Part shown: positions 14,539-55,279 of the stretch, piece after piece
How the letters are laid out: each line of letters starts with the position of its first letter
How positions within the stretch are numbered: the first letter of the stretch is position 1
Source: an uncultured Bacilli bacterium
GTDB taxonomy: Bacteria; Bacillota_I; Bacilli_A; RF39; UBA660
Reading direction: 5' to 3'
Assembly (NCBI GenBank): GCA_944350365.1
Contig: CALVOU010000001.1
Span: forward strand, 14,814 to 78,813
DNA: 64,000 bases
Position numbers and translations under genes: made by a program
Notes under the pieces: generated by a model
Seen by the model: only the letters and a program-made list of their open reading frames with translations
What the model was told of the DNA's origin: nothing
Database searches by the model: none

Positions 14539-15111
14539 ACTATCTTGAACGATAATATAATTCTAATATTCTGACAGTTTTTCTAGCAGAAACAAAAAAC
14601 AAATCATCATATAACTATATTTTAGTTTTCTCTTTAAATTTTCTAAATAATTTATTTTTTCTTTCTGAATCTCATAGTCTTTTATACTTCCTACAAATAA
14701 ACCAAGTTTTTTCTTAAGTACCTTTAAAAAGATAAGAATTTTTTAATAAGTTTGTCTTTATTACATTTTTTTCCATTTTTTAAATATAATAGTTTTCTTT
14801 TTTCTAATGTAAATCCAATCTTAACATCTATAGTTATCAATACTGATAATGTAAGACAAACAAATTCATCAAGCTCTTTCATAGTATATTTCTTTAAAAA
14901 GTTGAATAACAAACAATAGTGAAAACAATGTAATAATCAACAAATATATCATAAGTATCTTTATTTTATATTTCTTAAAAGTAAAACCAATTATTCTATT
15001 CCTGCTATAACATACTATTATCTATTTACTTCATCATATTATATTCTTTATAAAAATTCAATAATTTTATCTAGCAAATAAAAAATTAGGAATTATTTTA
15101 CATAATAATCC

Positions 15112-20213: not shown

Positions 20214-20480
20214 TACTCAACACCACCTCATAAAAAAACGACTTTCTCGCCTATAAGGACGAAAAAATCGCGGTACCACCTTACTTTATGAATAAATATC
20301 CATACTCTCAACTTCTTAACGCGAATAACGGATAAACCTACCTATCGATCTATCAGTTCCAGAACCATCTATCATACTTCCTTTATATCCCATTTCACCA
20401 ACCGAGACTCTCTTCTCATAAAATCCATATGACTCTTTCTTTCAAAACTTTTATATCTAGAGATTATATCATAAAGATTT

Positions 20481-26354: not shown

Positions 26355-26368
26355 ATTTCCCGGGAAAT
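26355..26368. promoter_or_regulatory. Isolated Noc-binding-site palindrome ATTTCCCGGGAAAT, about 50 bp upstream of the pth start
   Basis: A perfect 14-bp NBS consensus, extended to an 18-bp palindrome TTATTTCCCGGGAAATAA. It sits in the rsmI-pth intergenic region. Confidence 0.5.
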
Positions 26369-32921: not shown

Positions 32922-33368
32922 TTAAGAACGTTTTTCACGAAAAAAATCTTTTACTAAATTCGAAGTTTCTTCCTCTAGAATACCACCAATAAGTTCAACT
33001 GTATTTCCATACGACCGCGTCGAAAATATTTTTTCAACTAATTCAACATCATTTGTATTAGCAACTGTTCCATAAACGACTTTTGCTATTCTAGATTGGG
33101 CAATAGCACTAGCACACATTGGACATGGCATCATAGTTACATACAAAATACAATCAATTAACCGCCAATTTTCTAATTTTTCAGAAGCTTCCATAATACA
33201 ACCTATCTCAGCATGAAAAATTGCACAATTTTTTGAATCTTTCTGATTATGTGAAGAAGCGATCACTTGATTATTCTTAACTAAAACCGCTCCTACCGGA
33301 ACTTCACCATTTTGATAAGCTATTTTGGCTTCTTCTAAAGCTAAACCCATAAATTCTATATCATTCAT
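32922..33368 (-). CDS. tadA: tRNA-specific adenosine deaminase
   Basis: The CDA motifs HAEIGCI and PCPMCASA are present. The start is set at MNDIEFMG (33368) with a GGGAGAA RBS. The listed 175-aa ORF begins earlier at 33449, and that N-terminal extension overlaps the ffs RNA gene. Confidence 0.85.
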   Translation of the reverse strand: MNDIEFMGLALEEAKIAYQNGEVPVGAVLVKNNQVIASSHNQKDSKNCAIFHAEIGCIMEASEKLENWRLIDCILYVTMMPCPMCASAIAQSRIAKVVYGTVANTNDVELVEKIFSTRSYGNTVELIGGILEEETSNLVKDFFREKRS

Positions 33369-33384
33369 ATATATTCTCCCAAAA

Positions 33385-33465
33385 AAAAGTGCACATAAAT
33401 ATGAAATGTTAAGGCTGCTATCTTCCGATCCTGACCTGGTTCCACCCATATTTATTGCACATCAA
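33385..33465 (-). ncRNA. ffs: Signal recognition particle RNA (small 4.5S-type SRP RNA)
   Basis: The minus strand reads ...GGGUGGAACCAGGUCAGGAUCGGAAGAUAGCAGCC... This matches the universally conserved SRP RNA domain IV (ACCAGGUCAGG..GGAAG..AGCAGCC). Closing helix: GUGCAAUAAAUAUG pairs with CAUAUUUAUGUGCAC. A U-tract follows. Confidence 0.7.
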
Positions 33466-33479
33466 TATTCTAATATATT

Positions 33480-33532
33480 TTATCCACAATTTCAACAAAA
33501 ATGCAAAATTTTCTATTATTTTTTTATCCACA
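33480..33532 (+). promoter_or_regulatory. Two perfect DnaA boxes (TTATCCACA at 33480-33488 and 33524-33532) between ffs and the parS array
   Basis: Exact 9-mer consensus, same orientation. Further boxes lie at 34130-34138 (TTATCCACC, one mismatch) and 35275-35283 (perfect). Confidence 0.5.
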
Positions 33533-33543
33533 ATTAAATTTAA

Positions 33544-33559
33544 TGTTTCACGTGAAACA
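33544..33559. promoter_or_regulatory. parS site 1 (TGTTTCACGTGAAACA)
   Basis: Exact 16-bp parS consensus palindrome. Confidence 0.8.
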
Positions 33560-33662
33560 TCGAACAGAAATTTTATGCTAAAACACTACTTTTAAATGTT
33601 AAAAATAATAATATATTTGTCACTCTACATAAAATTACAACTAAAAGTTAATTAGCCGACAA

Positions 33663-33678
33663 TGTTTCACGTGAAACA
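33663..33678. promoter_or_regulatory. parS site 2, paired with NBS at 33692-33705
   Basis: Exact parS. It is followed by TGTGTATAA and then the perfect NBS ATTTCCCGGGAAAT. Confidence 0.8.
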
Positions 33679-33928
33679 TTGTGTATAAATTATTTCCCGG
33701 GAAATAATTTTTTATTCATTTCGACAAAATGGCAAGAATTAATATATATCAAAAAAAAATATCTTAGATCTTAGTATCGATTATATTCTTTAAATAACAA
33801 TACAATGGCTTTTCCCAAAAAAAAATAATAATTACCCGCTAAATAAACAATAACTATGTCTTAATGTACTCCCTTTCACAGAGAAACTTCAGAAAATTCA
33901 ATAGAGAAAGAGAGAACTAAAAAATCAA

Positions 33929-33944
33929 TGTTTCACGTGAAACA
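33929..33944. promoter_or_regulatory. parS site 3, paired with a variant NBS ATTTCCCAGGAAAT at 33958-33971
   Basis: Exact parS. The adjacent NBS has one mismatch. Confidence 0.75.
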
Positions 33945-34192
33945 TTGTGCATATTTTATTTCCCAGGAAATAATTTTTCGACTAATTTAACAAACAACAA
34001 TATAAAATCCTCATGCGTTAAATTAATTTAAAACTAAATACATGACTTTGGCACACATACAACCAAACATTTTTATAAAAAAGCATCGACAACTACTTAA
34101 TCAATCAATATCAAAGGAATTATCCACCGTATAAAATTATTAACGGGTACAATAAATAAACTTACACATATAATATAAAGTTAACAATTCAA

Positions 34193-34208
34193 TGTTCCAC
34201 GTGAAACA
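34193..34208. promoter_or_regulatory. parS site 4 (TGTTCCACGTGAAACA, the B. subtilis-type variant), with no adjacent NBS
   Basis: A 15/16 match to the palindrome. It is identical to the classic B. subtilis parS. Confidence 0.75.
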
Positions 34209-34362
34209 TTGAGGAAAAAACATTTCAAAAAAAGCAGCAAATATAGGCTAATAATATGATATTTCTTAAAAAAAATCATAATCCTATAAAACATACATCT
34301 ATAAATCGTTTAAATGACACTCTCGTTAAGAATTTTACAAATAAATAAAACTATTTGATGAA

Positions 34363-34378
34363 TGTTTCACGTGAAACA
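34363..34378. promoter_or_regulatory. parS site 5, paired with NBS at 34392-34405
   Basis: Exact parS plus a perfect NBS. This is the duplicate of the site 2 unit. Confidence 0.8.
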
Positions 34379-34609
34379 TTGTGTATAAATTATTTCCCGG
34401 GAAATAATTTTTTATTCGTTTCAACAAAATGGCAAGAATTACATCTTAGAACATAGTAACGATTATATTCCTTAAATAACATTATAATAGTTTTTCGCAA
34501 AAAAAATAATAATTACCTGCCAAATAAACAATAACTACATCTCAATGTACTCCCTTTCACAAAGAAATTTTAGAAAATTCAATAGAAAAAGAGAAAACTA
34601 ATAGATCAA

Positions 34610-34625
34610 TGTTTCACGTGAAACA
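34610..34625. promoter_or_regulatory. parS site 6, paired with NBS at 34638-34651
   Basis: Exact parS plus a perfect NBS. Confidence 0.8.
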
Positions 34626-34893
34626 TTGTGTATATTTATTTCCCGGGAAATAATTTTAAAGCATTTTATTTTTACTAATAATAACTTCCTTATCTGAGCA
34701 TAACTAAAAAACATATTACCGTTTTAAGAAAAAATATTTATTTACAACAAACACAATATAAATTTTTATTTGAAATTTCCTACAATAAAAATATTTTCTT
34801 AATATGATCTTATCTTCTATGCAAAAGCTAAATCCTACTGATAAAGCTTTCAAGATTATAATTTAATCTTCTATTAGAACTTTCACTATCTAA

Positions 34894-34909
34894 TGTTTCA
34901 CGTGAAACA
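34894..34909. promoter_or_regulatory. parS site 7, paired with NBS at 34923-34936
   Basis: Exact parS plus a perfect NBS. Confidence 0.8.
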
Positions 34910-35153
34910 TTGTGCATAAATTATTTCCCGGGAAATAATTTCCTAACTACTATAAGTACAAAAAATTTTAATAATAATTCATCACCATATCCAATATAGA
35001 CCAACTCAAATAAATTATAACGGATAATTTCAATTTAAAATAAATAAGAAAATTCTATAAATAAAATAATAGAACGAGCATTAATAATTAAAAATCCAAA
35101 ACTTCTAACAATAATAATCATAATCTATATTCTATATAAAGAATAATTAACAA

Positions 35154-35169
35154 TGTTTCACGTGAAACA
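35154..35169. promoter_or_regulatory. parS site 8, with no adjacent NBS
   Basis: Exact parS. Confidence 0.8.
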
Positions 35170-35333
35170 TTGTGTATAAAATATATATTTAAGAAATAAA
35201 TCTTTATTCATAATTTTAGATTCCTATAAAATCGATAAGTAATTACTATACTAAATACACAATGCTAATTTATTTTATCCACAAAGCGGTGGAATCAATA
35301 TGGCACAAAAAAACATAGACCTTAAAAGATCTA

Positions 35334-35349
35334 TGTTTCACGTGAAACA
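35334..35349. promoter_or_regulatory. parS site 9, lying 9 bp downstream of the gyrA stop
   Basis: Exact parS. It lies between the gyrA stop codon and the putative gyrA terminator hairpin at 35305-35332. Confidence 0.8.
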
Positions 35350-35357
35350 TGCGAATT

Positions 35358-37802
35358 CTATTCCACTGTTTCCTCTTCTGCTTCATCCGTTTCTGAAGTA
35401 CTATCAATTACAGATACAGTAGCAACACGTTGATCATCCTTCAAATGGATTAATCTCACCCCTTGCGTAGCTCGTTTAAGTGTAGAAATCTGATCCATTG
35501 GCATTCTCATGATTATACCATTATCAGTAATAATAATTAAATCATCAGCATCTGTAACAGCTTTCAATGAAACCATACTTCCATTCTTTTCTGTAATATG
35601 TAGCGCCATAACTCCCTTACTACCACGGTGAGTTAATCGATACTCATCAACTTCAGTTTTCTTACCATAACCATTAACAGTAACAACTAAAATTTTCTGA
35701 GAGTTATCCACAACTTCGCCACCAACGGTTATCGCACCATCTAATTCCATTCCTTTAACACCAGAAGCAGTTCTTCCCATTACACGAATTTCTTTTTCAC
35801 TAAATCTAACCATACGTCCGTTCGATGCGCCTATCAATACTTCATTCTCACCTGTCGTTTTACGAACAGAAATTAATTCGTCATCTTCTTTTAACGTTAT
35901 AGCCAACTTACCACTTGATCTAATATTATCAAATTCAGATAAATTCGTCCGTTTTACTAATCCATTCTTAGTAATAAATAACAAATAATTGAACGAATGT
36001 TCGCTAGCTTCTAGAGTAACAACAGAACTTATATATTCTTCTTTCTCAAGAGGAAGTAAATTAATGATAGGTAGTCCCTTACTCTGACGACTGTATTCAG
36101 GAATTTCATACCCTTTCATCCGATATACCTTACCCTTATTCGTAAAGAATAAAATATAATCATGAGTACTCATATTAAGCATTTTCTCCACAAAATCCTC
36201 TTCGTTAGTCGTCATACCTTTTATACCTACACCACCACGATTTTGTGTACGATAAGCATCAACAGGCATACGTTTAATGTACCCTTTATTCGTTAGTGTG
36301 ATCAAAGTCTGTTCTACTGGAATTAAAGACTCATCTTCGATATATTCAATAGCTGTCATATCAATTGTTGTTCTACGTTCATCACCATATTTATCTTTAA
36401 TTTCTAATAATTCATTTTTAATAACTTCCAAAATCTTTTCATCACTACTCAAAATTAACCTTAGCTCCCCTATTAACTTCAATAAATCGGCTAATTCATT
36501 TTCTATTTTCTCGCGCTCTAATCCAGTTAATCTTCTTAACTTCATCTCTAGAATCGCATTAGCTTGAACCTCAGATAAGCCAAATTTCGACATTAAACCA
36601 GATCGAGCCTCGTCATCAGAATTAGCTGCTTTGATTAATTGAATAATTTCATCAATATTATCAAGAGCTATCTTTAATCCCTCTAAAATATGAACACGTT
36701 TTTCAGCATTCTCCAAATCAAAACGAGTTCTACGAATAATTACTTCACGTTGGAAATCAATATATTTTGCGATAATATCCTTTAATCCTAATGTTTTAGG
36801 AACACCTTGATCAAGCATAAGGAAAATAATACCGTAACTAACCTGAAGACTTGTATGCTTATATAATTTATTCAAAACAACCTGAGCATTAGCATCTTTC
36901 TTCAACGTAATCGTAATCTTAATTCCATCTTTTAAATCAGAATGGTAGTCTGAAATTCCTTCAATTGTCTTGTTATGAACAAGCTCAGCAACCTTGTTTT
37001 TTAAATCCAAAGTATTAATTCCATAAGGTACTTCTTCAATAATAATATATTGTTTACCATTCTTTTCCTCAATATGAGCCTTACTACGTATAGTAATAGA
37101 CCCCCTACCTGTTTCATAAGCTTTTCTAATACCACTATTTCCTAAAATAGTAGCACCAGTAGGAAAATCAGGTCCTTTTACATACTGCATTAACTCATTT
37201 AACTCAATATCCGGGTTATCAATATAAGCCACACAACCATCAATAACTTCACCCAAATTATGAGGTGGGATGTTTGTAGCCATACCAACGGCAATACCTG
37301 TAGTACCATTTACTAAAATATTCGGGAATCTAGAAGGTAAAACAACTGGCTCCTTTGTAGATTCATCGAAGTTTGGAATAAAATCAACAGTATTTTTATT
37401 AATATTTCTAAGTAATTCCAAAGAAATCTTCGAAAGTCTAGATTCCGTATATCGCATGGCAGCTGCGCCATAACCTTCAATATTTCCAAAGTTACCATGA
37501 CCATCTATCAACATGTAGCGATAAGAAAAATCTTGAGCCATTCTTACCATTGCTTCATAAATAGAAGAATCTCCATGAGGGTGATAATTACCCATAACCT
37601 CACCGACAGTTTTCGCACTTTTTTTATGAGGCTTATCAGGAGTATAACCAGACTCATACATAGAATATAAAATTCGACGATGAACAGGTTTTAATCCATC
37701 ACGAAGATCAGGAATAGCACGAGCAGTTATAACACTCATCGAATAATCCAAAAAGGAATCTTGTACTTCTTTTACAATATTATTGTGTTCTAATCTATCC
37801 AT
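35358..37802 (-). CDS. gyrA: DNA gyrase subunit A
   Basis: 814 aa. It has an active-site Tyr region, a QRDR-like segment ([17 protein letters not shown]), C-terminal beta-pinwheel repeats and an acidic tail. Confidence 0.95.
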
Positions 37803-42814: not shown

Positions 42815-44188
42815 TTATACGATTTCTTTCTTCAATTTTTCGATAATATTCGCAAGCTCTTGGTTAGTTTGCATCTCCTTCTCTACTTTTTCGACAGAAT
42901 GCATTACTGTGGAATGATCTTTTCCACCAAATTCTATACCAATCTTAGGAAAAGATTCGTTGGTGAGTTTTCTACAGAGATACATCGCAACTTGTCGTGG
43001 AAATGCTAGATTTGCACTTCTCTTTTTACTTTTCATGTCGTCGACCGATATCTGGAAGTGTTCTGCAACAATTCTTTGAATCCGATTGATATTATTTTTC
43101 TCACTATATCCTTTATTTACATAGTCTTTTAATACCTCTATTGCTAGATCTAAGGTAATGTCAGCTCCTCCCATAATCGTAGAATAAGCAAGTAGTCTGG
43201 TAATAGACCCCTCTAGATGTCTAACGTCACTACCCACATTAGAAGCTATATAGTCTATTACATCATCTGGAATATTCTTATCGATAGAGTCCCCAATGAT
43301 TTTCTTTTTTATTATTGCTACCCTAAGTTCAAAGTCTGGTGGATAAATATCTGCTGTTAAGCCCCAACAAAACCTAGTTCTAAGTCTATCTTCTAATAAT
43401 TTTAAATCATCCGGAGATCGATCTGAGGAAATAATAATCTGTTTATTTTCATTATATAAGGTAGTAAAAGTGTGGAAAAATTCATTTTGTGTTTGCGTAG
43501 CTCCCTGAAAAAACTGAATATCATCGATAATTAGTACATCAATATTTCTATATTTATCTTTAAAATAACTGACATAATCGAAGTTTTGCCCAAATTCATC
43601 TTTCTTATTAATCCCTAAAAAATCATTAATAAATTGATCACTTGGTACATATAATACTTTTTTATTAGAATGTTGCTCGATATAATTGCCAATAGCATGC
43701 ATCAGATGGGTTTTCCCTAACCCACTATTTCCGTAGATAAATAAAGGATTATATATATTCCCAGGATTCTCTGCGACATCCATTGCCGCTGCTTGTGCGA
43801 ACTTATTACTATTTCCCACAATAAAATTGTCGAATGTATAATTAGGATTTAAATTAGACTGGTGTCGTCTTTCTGGCTTCTCTCCAAGAGTTACTTCCCT
43901 ATTTTCTATTGGTTTTTGTTCTGGAGGTTTTCCTTCTTCTAGTTCTTCTTTTAGATAAAACTGAATATCTACATTATCTCCAATAATTTCACTCAATGTA
44001 TTTACAATCAAGTCGTAGTATTTAGTTGCTAGATGCCTTTTAAACATCCCCATCGGCACAATGATTTTAGCTACTCCATCTTTATATTCATATAGCTCAG
44101 TATCTTTAAACCAAGTATTATAAGAAAGAGGAGTCATTTCGTTTTGAATACTATTTAAAAAGTTTGACCAAATCATTTTAACATTCAT
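42815..44188 (-). CDS. dnaA: Chromosomal replication initiator DnaA
   Basis: It has an AAA+ Walker A (GNSGLGKTHL), a DnaA-box-binding C-terminal domain and a GGAGGAG RBS. The likely start is MNVKMIWSNF at 44188. The listed ORF extends to 44281 across the DnaA-box region. Confidence 0.95.
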   Translation of the reverse strand: MNVKMIWSNFLNSIQNEMTPLSYNTWFKDTELYEYKDGVAKIIVPMGMFKRHLATKYYDLIVNTLSEIIGDNVDIQFYLKEELEEGKPPEQKPIENREVTLGEKPERRHQSNLNPNYTFDNFIVGNSNKFAQAAAMDVAENPGNIYNPLFIYGNSGLGKTHLMHAIGNYIEQHSNKKVLYVPSDQFINDFLGINKKDEFGQNFDYVSYFKDKYRNIDVLIIDDIQFFQGATQTQNEFFHTFTTLYNENKQIIISSDRSPDDLKLLEDRLRTRFCWGLTADIYPPDFELRVAIIKKKIIGDSIDKNIPDDVIDYIASNVGSDVRHLEGSITRLLAYSTIMGGADITLDLAIEVLKDYVNKGYSEKNNINRIQRIVAEHFQISVDDMKSKKRSANLAFPRQVAMYLCRKLTNESFPKIGIEFGGKDHSTVMHSVEKVEKEMQTNQELANIIEKLKKEIV

Positions 44189-44229
44189 ACTACTCCTCCT
44201 ACTTCTAACAAATTGCAAGAAATATTGTA

Positions 44230-44430
44230 ACGTAAAACTGTGGAAAAATAAACTACCAATTTTAAAAAAATTTAAATCCACAGCTAATCCACAAGTAATT
44301 CACAGATTTATCCACAATATTTTCTTAGAAAATAAAAAAGGAATCGCGATTTATCCACAATTTAGAAAAAACACAATTCACATAGTGGAAAAAGTTATCA
44401 ACACCCTGTGGAAACTGTGGAAAAATGGAA
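44230..44430. promoter_or_regulatory. oriC DnaA-box cluster upstream of dnaA
   Basis: Perfect boxes lie at 44308-44316 and 44351-44359. Several 1-2 mismatch boxes are present in both orientations (44239, 44276, 44286, 44385, 44407, 44416). Confidence 0.7.
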
Positions 44431-48181: not shown

Positions 48182-48195
48182 ATTTCCCGGGAAAT
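48182..48195. promoter_or_regulatory. Isolated perfect NBS palindrome ATTTCCCGGGAAAT in the mnmG promoter region
   Basis: It lies about 30-45 bp upstream of TATAAT-like elements (48213-48230) that precede mnmG. Confidence 0.5.
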
Positions 48196-50820: not shown

Positions 50821-52260
50821 ATGTTAAAGTATTATAAAAATGTCGTAAAATACAATGAAGATGTTTGTTATGGCGTTGGAATCATAACCGGTTGGAAATC
50901 TACCGATATGATTTTGGATAGTTTAAGTGAAGAAGTAAAGCGCAAAATAGTAACTTGTGGGAACTTATATACAAAAAACGGAATCAATTATATTATTGCC
51001 AATTTATTTTTAAATCCCCAGATTACAGAATTAATCGTTTTAGAAGATTCTTCTTTACAAAATGAAATGGCGGAAGGAATAACTGCTCTTTTAGAATTCT
51101 TAACCACTAACGAATTAACATTTGAATCAAAATTTCAATTCACTGAAGAAAATTTAACGCAATTTACGAAATATTTTAAAGATCATATTAGAGTAGTAAA
51201 AAGGCAAGATCTAGAGCAACAACTTAAACAAATTGATATTCCAGAAAAAGATTGGTGTAAAATTACCGAAATAAAAGAAAATCCATTAGAACTCCAGCAT
51301 CAGATTCCAAGTGAAAAGGTAGGCTTTACGGTAAGAGCCAATACCGCTTATGAAGCATGGAATCGAGCGTTAAAATTAATCCATACTTATGGCTATTTAA
51401 AACCATCTGATTATGATGAGAATCAATTAGAATTAATCAACTTATCGATTATTGTTAGAAACGAGGATTTAGCTAACCCCAGTATGGCCGGAGTAATTGA
51501 TATCACTCGGGAAGAATTAGAAGAATATGAGAAAAATATTCTTTCTAAAGAAAGACCAGACGGAGTAAAGTATACATATGGAAGTCGTTATCGAGATCAA
51601 AATGGGAAAGACCAATTTCAATATATGGTAGATACCTTAAAAGATAAGCCATTTTCTAGAAGGGCGGTTGCTACTCTTTGGGTTCCTACTATCGACATCG
51701 AGGAAGACGAAGTTCCCTGCCTTGACTTATATCAAGCGATTATTGAAGGAGAATATCTCCATCTTCTTACTTATATTCGAGCAAACGATGTCTATAATGG
51801 TTGGCCGAGAAATATCTATGGCATTTTAAAAATTCAAGAAGAATTATGCCAACGTCTTGGCTATCAAAAAGGATACGTAAATACCATTGCCGGAAGTGCT
51901 CATGTTTATGGGAGAAATTTTGATGATTTAGAAAAAAAATTCAATGAGAAAGAGGTATCCTTTTGTGACGAAGACGAAAGAGGATATTTTACGGTAACGA
52001 TAGAAAACAACCTAATTCAAGTTACTTTCTATAGTATAACAGGACAAGAACTCCGCAGATTTACAGGCACGAGTGCTACAGAATTAAGAAATAAATGTAC
52101 TCTTTATATAAGTAACATCGATCATGCTTTCTATTTAGGACAAGAGTTAATGAAAGCTGAGTTGGCACTTAAAAATCAACTATTCTATGTACAAGATCAA
52201 TCATTAGATTTAAAATCAAAACAGAAAACATTAAGTAATCCACTAAAATTTAATGATTAA
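50821..52260 (+). CDS. Thymidylate-synthase-fold protein with a roughly 160-aa N-terminal extension
   Basis: Residues from about 165 to 430 align with the ThyA core. The Cys-loop is PCLDLYQ (PCH in canonical ThyA). IRANDVYNGWPRNIYG matches QRSCDVFLGLPFNIAS, with Arg, Asp and Asn conserved. GSAHVYG matches GDTHLY. Confidence 0.55.
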   Translation: MLKYYKNVVKYNEDVCYGVGIITGWKSTDMILDSLSEEVKRKIVTCGNLYTKNGINYIIANLFLNPQITELIVLEDSSLQNEMAEGITALLEFLTTNELTFESKFQFTEENLTQFTKYFKDHIRVVKRQDLEQQLKQIDIPEKDWCKITEIKENPLELQHQIPSEKVGFTVRANTAYEAWNRALKLIHTYGYLKPSDYDENQLELINLSIIVRNEDLANPSMAGVIDITREELEEYEKNILSKERPDGVKYTYGSRYRDQNGKDQFQYMVDTLKDKPFSRRAVATLWVPTIDIEEDEVPCLDLYQAIIEGEYLHLLTYIRANDVYNGWPRNIYGILKIQEELCQRLGYQKGYVNTIAGSAHVYGRNFDDLEKKFNEKEVSFCDEDERGYFTVTIENNLIQVTFYSITGQELRRFTGTSATELRNKCTLYISNIDHAFYLGQELMKAELALKNQLFYVQDQSLDLKSKQKTLSNPLKFND

Positions 52261-52368: not shown

Positions 52369-53502
52369 ATGGATAGAGAAGTAGTGGATTTATATTTGGA
52401 TGACATTATCCCTAACCGTTTTCAACCACGTGAAGTATTTAATGAACAAGCTTTGCGAGAATTAGCTGACTCTATTAGAGCACATGGAGTAATACAGCCA
52501 ATTATCGTTAGAAAAATAGGAGATAAATACGAAATTATTGCCGGAGAAAGAAGATATAAAGCATCTGCGATGGCTGGTCTAACTAAAATTCCGGCAATTA
52601 TTAGAAATTTAGATGATAAAGAGACTTCAAAGGTGGCACTACTCGAAAACTTACAAAGAAAGGATTTAACACCGATCGAAGAAGCTAGAACGTATCAAAA
52701 AATACTAGAACTTGATTCGATGACACAAGAAGAGCTCGGACGTACTATGGGAAAATCCCAAGCGGCAATTGCCAATAAGATGCGTTTATTATCTTTACCT
52801 GATGAAGTTCAAGAAGCACTACTTCATGATCAAATATCAGAAAGACATGCTAGGAGTTTATTGAATCTAGATTCAAGAGAAGATCAAATAAATATGCTTC
52901 ATGCTATCATTGAAAAAAGAATGACGGTTAGAGAATTAGATAATGAAATTAGAAAATTAAAAGGCATTGAAGAACCAACTTCAAGCGAGGGTAATTTAGA
53001 AAGTACTGATCAAGGAGGAACTTCCATTTCCACTACTCCAGAACCAATTGAGATTCCAAGTCCAGTTACTCCTTCTAATCCAATGACAAGTACTAATCCT
53101 AATATTTCACGACCTCCGATAGATTTACTTGCTTCATCTAATCAAACAAGTTCTAAAGTAGAAGTATCTTCACCAAATTCAACTGTAGTTAGCACTCCTA
53201 AACCAGTTGTTAGAAATATTCTTACTCTATCAGATGACGATGAAGAAGATTTTACTCAGTTAACTCCAGAGCAAGTTTCATCAACTCTAGCTAATACTGA
53301 AGAGGGAGAACCCGAGGTAAAATACAATGATCCAGTCGAAGAATTATTAGATGATGAAGAATTATACTCATTGAAAGATGCCGTAAAAGAGTTAAGAAGA
53401 ACGGTAACTAATCTCGAAAATAGGGGCTTTGTTATTAAAGTCGAAGAATTAGATTTCGAAAATACTTACCAAGTAGTAGTAAAAATCAATAAAGATATTT
53501 AA
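52369..53502 (+). CDS. noc: Noc-like ParB paralog (nucleoid occlusion protein-like)
   Basis: It has the ParB N-domain (IQPIIVRK...IAGERRYKA) and the Noc-type recognition helix GKSQAAIANKMRLL (Noc GKGQSTIANKLRLL). A 120-aa Ser/Thr/Pro-rich linker precedes the C-terminal domain. There is no N-terminal amphipathic helix. Confidence 0.65.
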   Translation: MDREVVDLYLDDIIPNRFQPREVFNEQALRELADSIRAHGVIQPIIVRKIGDKYEIIAGERRYKASAMAGLTKIPAIIRNLDDKETSKVALLENLQRKDLTPIEEARTYQKILELDSMTQEELGRTMGKSQAAIANKMRLLSLPDEVQEALLHDQISERHARSLLNLDSREDQINMLHAIIEKRMTVRELDNEIRKLKGIEEPTSSEGNLESTDQGGTSISTTPEPIEIPSPVTPSNPMTSTNPNISRPPIDLLASSNQTSSKVEVSSPNSTVVSTPKPVVRNILTLSDDDEEDFTQLTPEQVSSTLANTEEGEPEVKYNDPVEELLDDEELYSLKDAVKELRRTVTNLENRGFVIKVEELDFENTYQVVVKINKDI

Positions 53503-53598: not shown

Positions 53599-54402
53599 AT
53601 GGGAAAGATAATATCATTAGTAAATCAAAAAGGTGGAGTAGGAAAAACGACAACGAGTATCAATCTTTCTGCATCTTTAGCTTACTTAGGAAAAAGAGTA
53701 TTATTAATTGATTTAGATCCCCAAGGAAATGCGACAACAGGTGTCGGAATTAATAAAGGAGATATCAGTAAAAGTGTTCACGATGTAATAACAGAGAAAT
53801 GTAATGTAATAGAGGCAATTATTAAAACAAAATATAAAAATCTTTATCTTTTGCCAGCAACAATTAATTTAGCAGGTATCGATATTGAACTTATGGAAAA
53901 GAGCAAGACAGATCAAAATTTCTCCAAAAACATTCAATTAAAGAAAGCGTTGGATCCGATTAGAGATTCTTTTGACTACATCATCATTGACTGTCCACCT
54001 TCTTTAGGGTTAATTACAACCAACGCATTAACAGCATCTAATTCTGTAATCATTCCTGTTCAATGTGAATTCTTCGCCCTCGAGGGAATTACTCAACTTC
54101 TTAATACAATTATGTTAGCGCAAAAAAATTTAAATCCTAATCTAGATATTGAGGGCGTTCTGCTGACCATGCTTGATTCACGAGCAATTCTTTGTCTAGA
54201 AGTGGTAGAAGATATTAGAAGATTTTTCAAAGAACGGGTATATAATACAATTATCCCAAGACTCGTTAGAATCGCGGAAGCTCCATCACATGGCACACCG
54301 ATCATCGCCTATGATTCCAAACATCGTGGATCGATTGCTTATTTAAATTTAGCAAAGGAAGTGATTGAAAGAAATGGAAACGCAAACACAAGCACAAAGT
54401 AG
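53599..54402 (+). CDS. soj: ParA-type chromosome partitioning ATPase Soj
   Basis: 267 aa with a deviant Walker A (KGGVGKTTT). Confidence 0.9.
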   Translation: MGKIISLVNQKGGVGKTTTSINLSASLAYLGKRVLLIDLDPQGNATTGVGINKGDISKSVHDVITEKCNVIEAIIKTKYKNLYLLPATINLAGIDIELMEKSKTDQNFSKNIQLKKALDPIRDSFDYIIIDCPPSLGLITTNALTASNSVIIPVQCEFFALEGITQLLNTIMLAQKNLNPNLDIEGVLLTMLDSRAILCLEVVEDIRRFFKERVYNTIIPRLVRIAEAPSHGTPIIAYDSKHRGSIAYLNLAKEVIERNGNANTSTK

Positions 54403-55279
54403 AAGAAAAGCTCTAGGAAGAGGCTTAGAAGAATTATTTAATAATGAACCAATGAACTATGAAACGATAGAAGAAAAAATTATTACGTCAACTCCAAAAG
54501 AAGAAATTGTAGAATTAAATTTATCTGAGTTACGTAGTAATCCTTATCAGCCACGGAAAAATTTTGACGAAAAGGCACTTCAAGAATTGGCTAATTCTAT
54601 TAAAGAATATGGGGTTTTTCAACCAATTATTGCCAAAAAAAGCATCAAAGGTTACGAGATTATCGCTGGAGAAAGAAGAGTAAAAGCATCTATTTTAGCC
54701 GGAAGAGAAACCATACCAGCTATTCTTCGTGACTTCAGTGATCAGGAAATGATGGAGATTGCGCTTTTAGAAAATCTTCAACGGGAAAATTTAAATGCCT
54801 TAGAAGAAGCCCTTGCTTATAAAAAATTGATAGAAGAGTTATCTTTAACGCAAGAAGCATTAGCTGAAAGAATTGGGAAAAGCCGGAGTCATATTACCAA
54901 TATGTTAGGTCTTTTGACTTTACCAGAAGAAGTCAAAGATTTAATCATGGAAAATAAATTGACAATGGGCCATGCTCGAGCACTAAGTAAATTAGAAAAT
55001 CCGAATAAAATCAAAGATCTTGCTCAAAAAGTTGTGATGGAAAATTTAAGTGTTCGTCAAGTAGAAAATTTAGCTTTTGAACCAACTGCTGAAAAAAAAC
55101 ATAAGACTAAGAAAGCACCCAATTCCCTAGAATATCGAAATATAGAAGAAAACTTATCTGAAAAATTAGGAACTAAAGTAAAAATTAATCATAATAAACT
55201 AGAAATTTCTTTCGTCAATCGTAATGATCTAAACCGTCTATTAGAAATAATAGGCATCGAACAAGAAAATGACATCTGA
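54365..55279 (+). CDS. spo0J: Chromosome partitioning protein Spo0J/ParB
   Basis: It has the N-terminal Soj-interacting peptide (KALGRGLEELF) and a ParB box (IIAGERRVKAS). The recognition helix GKSRSHITNMLGLL is Spo0J-type (GKSRSHVTN). Confidence 0.85.
   Translation: MKEMETQTQAQSRRKALGRGLEELFNNEPMNYETIEEKIITSTPKEEIVELNLSELRSNPYQPRKNFDEKALQELANSIKEYGVFQPIIAKKSIKGYEIIAGERRVKASILAGRETIPAILRDFSDQEMMEIALLENLQRENLNALEEALAYKKLIEELSLTQEALAERIGKSRSHITNMLGLLTLPEEVKDLIMENKLTMGHARALSKLENPNKIKDLAQKVVMENLSVRQVENLAFEPTAEKKHKTKKAPNSLEYRNIEENLSEKLGTKVKINHNKLEISFVNRNDLNRLLEIIGIEQENDI

Follow-up and report, generated by a model that had tools for sequence, protein, structure and literature searches.

Why would recognition sites for two different ParB-family proteins lie packed together beside a replication origin? 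The question is raised by a 64-kb stretch of DNA (the window; positions 14,814 to 78,813 of contig CALVOU010000001.1, assembly GCA_944350365.1) from an uncultured chicken-gut bacterium of the Bacilli, whose genome has a guanine-cytosine (GC) content of about 30%. The window contains the chromosomal replication origin, and 1.8 kb of non-coding DNA within it (33544..35349), running from a small signal recognition particle (SRP) RNA gene to the stop codon of gyrA, carries nine parS sites, five Noc-binding sites (NBS) and one decayed NBS. We consider it likely that this array is an origin-proximal composite centromere, in which loading sites for two paralogous, probably cytidine triphosphate (CTP)-dependent DNA clamps share the same short interval.

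All nine parS sites of the window fall inside the array, against a chance expectation of 0.03. Eight are perfect copies of the 16-bp palindrome TGTTNCACGTGAAACA and one has a single mismatch. NBS-like matches number eight in the window, where 0.3 would be expected, and five of them follow a parS by 27–28 bp, measured centre to centre. The NBS palindrome, ATTTCCCGGGAAAT (16-bp form TATTTCCCGGGAAATA), occurs in the array in four perfect copies and one with a single mismatch, and in two further perfect copies elsewhere. Thus five of the seven NBS with at most one mismatch in these 64 kb of genome cluster with parS, and four of those five are perfect over the 16 bp, with the palindrome reaching 24 bp. 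The two isolated perfect cores are intergenic, at pth/rsmI (26355..26368) and at mnmE/mnmG (48182..48195), with no parS nearby. Every NBS of the array is displaced from its parS by 27–28 bp towards gyrA, and the basic module of about 50 bp consists of parS, a 12–13-bp linker and NBS. Spacers of 100–240 bp separate the modules.

Read towards gyrA, and with coordinates that carry no strand, the array opens with parS-1 (33544..33559; perfect, TGTTTCACGTGAAACA), which has no NBS partner. Next come parS-2 (33663..33678; perfect) with NBS-1 (33691..33706; TATTTCCCGGGAAATA), centred 28 bp away, and parS-3 (33929..33944; perfect) with NBS-2 (33957..33972), whose one mismatch leaves CCCAGG. The mismatched parS-4 (34193..34208; TGTTCC) again stands without an NBS. 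It is followed by parS-5 (34363..34378; perfect) with NBS-3 (34391..34406; perfect, 28 bp) and by parS-6 (34610..34625; perfect) with NBS-4 (34637..34652; perfect), where a linker shorter by one base reduces the distance to 27 bp. The earlier note had the parS-linker-NBS module recurring at 34893 and 35152. The first of these is indeed a complete module, composed of parS-7 (34894..34909; perfect) and NBS-5 (34922..34937; perfect, 28 bp). The second retains parS-8 (35154..35169; perfect) and the linker, and is 83.9% identical to 33659-33719 in an alignment of 62 bp, but its NBS has decayed: the usual position is occupied by the relic ATATATTTAAGAAATAA (35183..35199), which gives no NBS match at up to two mismatches. 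The last site, parS-9 (35334..35349; perfect), lies about 9 bp beyond the gyrA stop codon.

Both predicted binders are encoded on the other side of the origin. A canonical ParB/Spo0J (54365..55279, plus strand), the predicted parS binder, has an N-terminal LGRGL ParA-interaction motif, ParB_N and HTH_ParB domains and a ParB_C dimerisation domain. Its gene is preceded by that of the ParA/Soj partition ATPase (53599..54402, plus strand) and, further upstream, by that of a 377-residue Noc-like ParB paralogue with ParB_N and HTH_ParB domains (52369..53502, plus strand), the predicted NBS binder. The best structure matches of the paralogue are to Noc (7NFU, 2.2e-63; 7OL9, 4.5e-55), with B. subtilis Spo0J at 2.6e-47. 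The half-sites of parS and NBS differ at just two positions, and four protein positions set the specificity, occupied by R173, T179, A184 and G201 in ParB and by Q, K, K and R in Noc (PMC7383237). The Noc-like protein has Q, K, S and R at these positions, three of the four residues of the Noc set, and the ParB of the window has R, M, T and G. With R173 and G201 in place and its gene beside parA, the latter has the features of a cognate ParB. The arginine patch reads GERR(Y/V)K in both proteins, as compared with GERRxR in characterised ParB and Noc, a conservative change; the changed residue, the final arginine, is implicated in spreading.

The N terminus of the Noc-like protein is shorter than that of Noc by roughly 26 residues. 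The open reading frame (ORF) cannot be extended upstream, and its residue 4 pairs with Geobacillus Noc residue 27 in the alignment. The protein therefore begins at the equivalent of Noc residue 27 and lacks both helix α1, the 10-residue membrane-targeting sequence, and helix α2. Nucleoid occlusion requires an N-terminal membrane-targeting amphipathic helix (PMC8429893), which is missing from this protein and from all 14 homologues sampled. The LG(K/R)GL ParA-interaction motif is likewise absent from the Noc-like protein, and this absence, together with a gene position next to parA-parB near rsmG, agrees with Noc. Ahead of a conserved C-terminal domain, the protein carries a disordered insert of about 120 residues that is acidic and rich in serine, threonine and proline. 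The 14 homologues (57–94% identity) start with MD(R/K)EVV, or in one case MNREVV. Their N-terminal and DNA-binding domains are nearly invariant, the linker is highly variable and either acidic or S/T/P-rich, and the C-terminal domain is conserved. The homologue with 94% identity is assigned by NCBI to Candidatus Scybalousia intestinigallinarum, a genus now called Candidatus Alloscybalousia (Bacillota, Bacilli incertae sedis); the older genus name is a homonym, and Alloscybalousia is now the name of the Bacilli lineage. A contig of a sister species carries the array and the same noc-like, parA and parB trio, and in both the window and the sister species the genes run rsmG, thymidylate-synthase-like gene, noc-like, parA, parB. 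The gene between rsmG and the noc-like gene (50821-52260) encodes a 479-residue protein with thymidylate-synthase-like and PterinBD-DUF4346 domains, and is also found in the sister species (L135).

To see how widely the two site types occur together, 185,579 species-representative genomes were scanned for parS followed by NBS within 6–36 bp. At least 120 loci were recovered, a figure that describes breadth and not prevalence because the query itself required adjacent sites. About 117 of the 120 listed loci have several parS and NBS clustered within 1–2 kb in the gyrA-dnaX interval. The GyrA proteins of these clustered loci are 56–99% identical to that of the window, and all but a few of the 120 come from uncultured gut genomes with 23–31% GC, recorded as Bacilli, Tenericutes, Mycoplasma, Erysipelotrichaceae, Clostridium sp. 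CAG:710 or Scybalousia. Some arrays alternate strictly between parS and NBS, with a 75-bp period repeated 9 times in L061, an 83-bp period repeated 10 times in L095 and an 84-bp period repeated 6 times in L036. Others, L046 and L060 for example, resemble the window in having pairs 150–330 bp apart. Several array-bearing genomes, among them L006, L026, L039, L053 and L073, are labelled Muribaculaceae, Mycoplasma or Tenericutes, probably through mistakes of binning or taxonomy, since their GC content is 25–37% and they share the gyrA-tadA-dnaX synteny.

The distance between neighbouring parS and NBS is non-random among the listed loci. Counting each distinct distance between adjacent sites once per locus, centre-to-centre distances of 19–49 bp peak at 25–27, 35–36 and 45–49 bp, with favoured values near 26, 36 and 47 bp. 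At a period of 10.5 bp the Rayleigh R is 0.34 (n=183), a value that was reached by none of 20000 uniform nulls, although the statistic takes related species as independent and its p-values are optimistic. When a single distance was taken per locus, the mean R was 0.35, compared with a null maximum of 0.30. Distances of 50–110 bp showed no significant periodicity. The mean phase is about n+0.45 helical turns, and the dyads of parS and NBS would therefore face opposite sides of the helix.

How did so dense an array arise? Self-comparison by BLAST shows one long repeat, in direct orientation, between copy 1 (33661..33977, plus strand) and copy 2 (34361..34657, plus strand), with 85.5% identity over 317 columns (E 2.9e-105). 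The repeat starts at a parS and stops just past an NBS, so that copy 1 comprises a module, spacer sA1 and a second module, and copy 2 a module, spacer sA2 and a second module. The copies, of 317 and 297 bp, align globally with 272 matches, 25 mismatches and 20 gap columns that include an 18-bp indel region, giving 91.6% identity on aligned bases. About 90% identity over some 330 bp, as first noted from the sequence, is thus a fair description if indels are ignored, and the proposed order within each copy (parS, linker, NBS, a spacer of about 200 bp, parS, linker, NBS) is borne out. The two spacers alone score z 55.7 against each other, and the similarity therefore reaches well beyond the short palindromes, as expected of a duplication. 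The same note had proposed a tandem unit of roughly 700 bp. In the window only about 300–320 bp are detectably repeated; the remainder is not, since 33973-34192 (spacer sB) and 34653-34893 (spacer sD) compare at z 1.7, and Tandem Repeats Finder, with a longest period of 500, reported no tandem array at the locus. A larger unit of about 700 bp is nevertheless plausible as an ancestral event that was followed by loss in the window's lineage, because the second unit of a related strain keeps a module and sB copy that is absent from the window.

This related strain, x, was recovered as two contigs (L131 and L134) from a metagenome scan with an 18-mer of the repeated spacer, and its flanks are 96–97% identical to the window. 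It has 11 parS and 7 NBS, as opposed to 9 and 5 in the window. The strains differ by a 521-bp indel, present in x in both assemblies, with both ends in parS-NBS modules: two modules of x, at 1913 and 2434, correspond in the alignment to a single module of the window, that of parS-6 at 34610, which marks the junction. The extra 521 bp consist of a spacer weakly similar to a sister-species spacer (z 5.3) and the second copy of the module plus sB, and were probably lost from the window's lineage by module-to-module recombination. The suggestion that array copy number varies between strains is therefore confirmed by a clean event. Individual sites flicker as well. The parS-4 and NBS-2 sites, each mismatched in the window, are perfect in x, the first parS of x has a mismatch, and the decayed relic at 35183..35199 is the same in both strains. 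The duplicated blocks (w1 and w2 in the window, x1 and x2 in the strain) are 96.2% identical for x1-x2, 95.2% for w1-x1, 93.6% for w1-x2, 91.6% for w1-w2, 91.5% for w2-x1 and 90.5% for w2-x2. Because the paralogues x1 and x2 are closer to each other than the positional orthologues w2 and x2, these values indicate continuing gene conversion or repeated duplication and not a single event.

The sister species (L060), with flanking DNA 90–93% and GyrA 99% identical to the window, has 7 parS and 5 NBS, and its spacers follow the order A-B-A-A-B-A, a duplication history of its own. Its module is the same as that of the window except for a linker longer by one base. Its spacers, by comparison, are unrelated or nearly so to those of the window (z 3.4 or less). 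Since spacers are essentially unrelated between the sister species, the stretch of about 200 bp conserved between the window's copies is alike through recent copying and not through constraint. Spacers turn over fast, and the palindromes remain perfect or nearly so. A mobile-element or phage origin of the module was also considered and was rejected, as a search of viral contigs for it gave 0 matches.

These observations can be accommodated by one model. ParB (54365-55279) would nucleate on parS and the Noc-like paralogue (52369-53502) on NBS. Once closed into clamps, both proteins would slide along a shared stretch of a few kilobases and form a mixed nucleoprotein complex that may mark the origin region for ParA-driven segregation. 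Directly repeated modules would be substrates for unequal crossing-over and gene conversion, which may account for the duplicated block and the variation in copy number, and selection would act on the sites and on the close parS-NBS spacing, not on the spacers. As the Noc-like protein has neither the membrane helix nor the ParA-interaction peptide, its contribution at the centromere would have to come from the clamp core, the long disordered linker and the C-terminal domain.

Several points weigh against a composite centromere. Occupancy of parS and NBS is predicted from motifs and specificity residues. At position 184 the Noc-like protein has a serine where the Noc family almost invariably has lysine, and it scores 287 bits against an NCBIfam Noc cutoff of 315. 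The genome scan speaks to breadth, as said above, and the phase statistic treats the species as independent. The window's own spacing of 27–28 bp falls beside the top of the first peak, on its shoulder. Finally, a protein with neither membrane helix nor ParA peptide may have either a cooperative role at the centromere or that of a roadblock.

The roadblock role deserves consideration as an explanation in its own right. Instead of building a joint complex, NBS-bound Noc-like dimers might act mainly as barriers that limit or steer the sliding of ParB clamps, or ParB might do so for the Noc-like clamps. The partition complex would then stay compact and would not spread into gyrA or the SRP RNA gene. 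Tightly bound proteins do block ParB sliding, and the placement of every NBS 27–28 bp to the gyrA side of its parS, the strict alternation of sites in many relatives (the 9, 10 and 6 repeats of L061, L095 and L036) and the lack of any known effector motif in the Noc-like protein are all compatible with an insulating function. However, protection of the gyrA side is inconsistent: among the last three parS before gyrA, the NBS is decayed at one and missing at another. The isolated NBS at 26355 and 48182 would be targets of the protein unrelated to parS, and the favoured spacings suggest that simultaneous occupancy matters, which cooperation fits at least as well. We therefore regard a mainly antagonistic role as unlikely. 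It is still less probable that the NBS are neutral by-products, derived from duplicated parS by a few mutations, perhaps unbound, kept only through tandem copying and functionless in their adjacency. The two-position difference between half-sites (PMC7383237) would make such an origin easy, the array clearly evolves by duplication, and one NBS has decayed and another is mismatched. Yet the same interval holds mixed clusters in about 117 of 120 listed genomes, with GyrA identity down to 56%, even though spacers are dissimilar between sister species. Four of five NBS are perfect to 16 bp and extended to 24 bp, their spacing from parS is non-random, and a paralogue with NBS-type residues and a nearly invariant DNA-binding domain is conserved across the clade. 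Together these leave neutrality very little room.

A different function was proposed in the earlier note, which placed a TATAAA(T) hexamer between every parS and its NBS. According to that proposal the hexamers might be −10 boxes driving short non-coding or divergent transcripts that open the DNA for ParB loading. TATAAA is in fact present in three of the six linkers (33683, 34383 and 35174), 5 bp after parS, while the others read GCATATTTT (33949), GTATATTT (34630) and GCATAAATT (34914). The linkers of the sister species are mixed too, with TATAAAA in three of six and CATAAAA, TACAAAA and CACAAAA also represented, and across related genomes parS and NBS are separated by 20 to over 60 bp with no common linker element. 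The region is A/T-rich and would melt easily; A/T-rich hexamers are, however, expected by chance in intergenic DNA of 27% GC. The region 33300-35500 contains 15 promoter-like sites and shuffled sequences contain 18.9 ± 4.5, so there is no enrichment, and in no case is the −10 supplied by the TATAAA of a linker. Direct reading of the DNA upstream of these hexamers reveals no usable −35 or TGn: the −35 position falls inside parS and reads AATGTT. The linkers thus offer neither a −35/−10 pair at 16–18-bp spacing nor an extended −10, as a sigma-70-type promoter would. An Rfam search, of the whole window at the gathering score and of the array at E values up to 1, found SRP RNA alone in the array region, with sub-threshold snoRNA-type matches that are noise. 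The folding of spacer sA1, examined for short transcripts, is no better than that of shuffles on either strand (z +1.6 and −0.07), and conservation of the spacers does not extend to the sister species. Nor is ParB known to need transcription in order to load on duplex parS in vitro. Transcription from the linkers is accordingly a very improbable purpose for the array, and the A/T-rich linker is best described as a probable spacer. Small ORFs were examined and rejected as well: none that lies wholly inside the array exceeds 46 codons, and any coding sequence would fall in spacers that are unconserved in the sister species.

An origin of the duplicated block in assembly error, through collapse or mis-joining of a repeat in the metagenome, is scarcely credible. 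In favour of such an error, short-read contigs of the species do break at parS modules (L123 at 33663, L124 at 35151 and L125 at 35333). Against this, L123, an independent metagenome contig from a different sample, is collinear with window positions 38000-33663 at 99.8% identity without gaps and spans both copies, so the layout is not an assembly artefact. The longer allele was agreed between two further assemblies, L131 and L134, and the 25 substitutions and 20 gap columns make the copies distinguishable in reads. Look-ups of exact TadA and GyrA proteins for strain variants returned just short contigs ending in the array, plus L123 with the same layout. The array is a systematic breakpoint for short-read assemblies beside gyrA, with contig ends at 33663, 35151 and 35333, the behaviour to be expected of a repeat. 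One low-coverage contig with identical tadA (L121) departs from the window at 33531, inside the DnaA box at 33524-33532. The unrelated A/T-rich DNA beyond the junction (461 nt, positions 1-461 of L121) is bounded at each end by one and the same 55-nt direct repeat, and reflects either a variant with an insertion or a chimeric assembly.

The position of the array is origin-proximal. GC skew changes sign at about 44 kb of the window, and dnaA (42815-44281, minus strand) heads the order dnaA-dnaN-recF-gyrB-gyrA, all on the minus strand, with perfect DnaA boxes on either side of dnaA. The array is 7.5–10.7 kb from dnaA, near the origin like chromosomal parS. To its right lies gyrA (35358..37802, minus strand), followed by gyrB, recF, dnaN and dnaA; to its left is the SRP RNA gene (33380..33466, minus strand; Rfam 55.5 bits), adjoined by tadA (32922-33368) and then dnaX, ybaB and recR. 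Right of the origin are rsmG, the thymidylate-synthase-like gene and the genes for the Noc-like paralogue, ParA and ParB. The 1.9 kb left of gyrA contain no ORF longer than 46 codons, and the GC content of the array is 0.27–0.30. Perfect DnaA boxes (TTATCCACA) at 33480-33488, 33524-33532 and 35275-35283 flank the array on both sides and are also kept in the sister species L060. A DnaA-box cluster was rejected as a clade-wide third component, a box being found near the array in just 14 of 116 related loci. The likely promoter of the SRP RNA gene (TTGAAA-17-TAGAAT, minus strand, 33495-33467) has the box at 33480 in its spacer. On the minus strand the gyrA stop codon is followed by a 13-bp hairpin and U-run (35306-35349; fold z −3.8), of which the right half of the terminal parS forms part. 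It is probably the gyrA terminator, in which case parS-9 would be transcribed. Elsewhere in the window, a T-box leader occupies 20252-20454 on the minus strand (Rfam RF00230, 98.1 bits), and a tRNA scan found none.

Comparison with known systems places the array between several of them. As in chromosomal ParABS (B. subtilis Spo0J/parS), the 16-bp parS consensus, the origin-proximal location, the LGRGL motif of ParB and a ParA encoded near the origin are all present, and multiple sites presumably raise clamp loading. Clustered parS regions are known in Myxococcus, Corynebacterium and Streptomyces, and B. subtilis has about 10 parS over hundreds of kilobases. Here the density is extreme, with 9 sites in 1.8 kb of a single intergenic region, and the sites are interleaved with those of a second paralogue in an array that is visibly recombining. 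The NBS palindrome, (T)ATTTCCCGGGAAAT(A), is the same as that of Noc in Bacillus subtilis and Staphylococcus aureus (PMC8429893, PMC7383237). Likeness to Noc extends to Q173, K179 and R201, to the best structure matches, to a gene upstream of parA-parB with rsmG further upstream and the thymidylate-synthase-like gene between, and to isolated NBS in the window. In contrast to Noc, the protein starts after the membrane helix, has the disordered insert of about 120 residues and has S instead of K at 184, and many NBS are clustered with parS at the centromere, whereas Noc sites are only scattered around the chromosome.

Plasmid arrays offer a further parallel. F sopC consists of 12 tandem 43-bp repeats with one SopB site each. 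Like the array described here, such arrays are dense, tandem sets of palindromic ParB-family sites whose repeat number changes by recombination, and the relatives L061 (75-bp period, 9 copies) and L095 (83-bp period, 10 copies) are very sopC-like. The present array differs in being chromosomal, in combining two site types for two paralogues and in having long (100–240 bp), heterogeneous spacers. Spo0J and Noc act jointly on the timing of the Z ring in B. subtilis (PMC6852036), so that a functional tie between two ParB paralogues around the origin region is common to both cases, but the tie in B. subtilis is genetic, does not involve shared DNA sites and concerns a membrane-binding Noc. A literature search for Noc, NBS and parS together, for both site sequences and for Mollicutes/RF39, which did not cover all journals, yielded only in vitro and B. 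subtilis work and found no description of natural parS/NBS arrays; both site sequences occurred together only in in vitro studies of the two proteins. Each of parS, NBS, ParB and Noc has been studied in depth, but the literature searched contains no account of their natural occurrence side by side in a recombining array.

The array explains why short-read assemblies break beside gyrA and is a fast-evolving length marker for strain typing. Its wider meaning we put forward tentatively, as an idea that may well prove wrong: more than 100 species-level genomes of uncultured, low-GC gut Bacilli, including Candidatus Alloscybalousia and Clostridium sp. CAG:710, might use a two-protein centromere in which ParB and an anchorless Noc-derived paralogue sit side by side on interleaved parS and NBS. 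Close pairs about n+0.5 turns apart suggest that both dimers could be accommodated at once on opposite faces of the DNA. Such a centromere would represent either an ancestral stage of Noc or a new centromere function of a Noc-type clamp, and the paralogue would either never have had a membrane anchor or have lost it. As an ancestral stage, it would imply that the new DNA specificity was gained while the protein was still at the centromere, before membrane binding and dispersal of its sites. If the Noc-like paralogue does load beside ParB, these bacteria would provide a natural system for asking how two CTP-dependent clamps use one stretch of DNA together or divide it between them, and a view both of anchorless Noc-type function and of the divergence of Noc from ParB.

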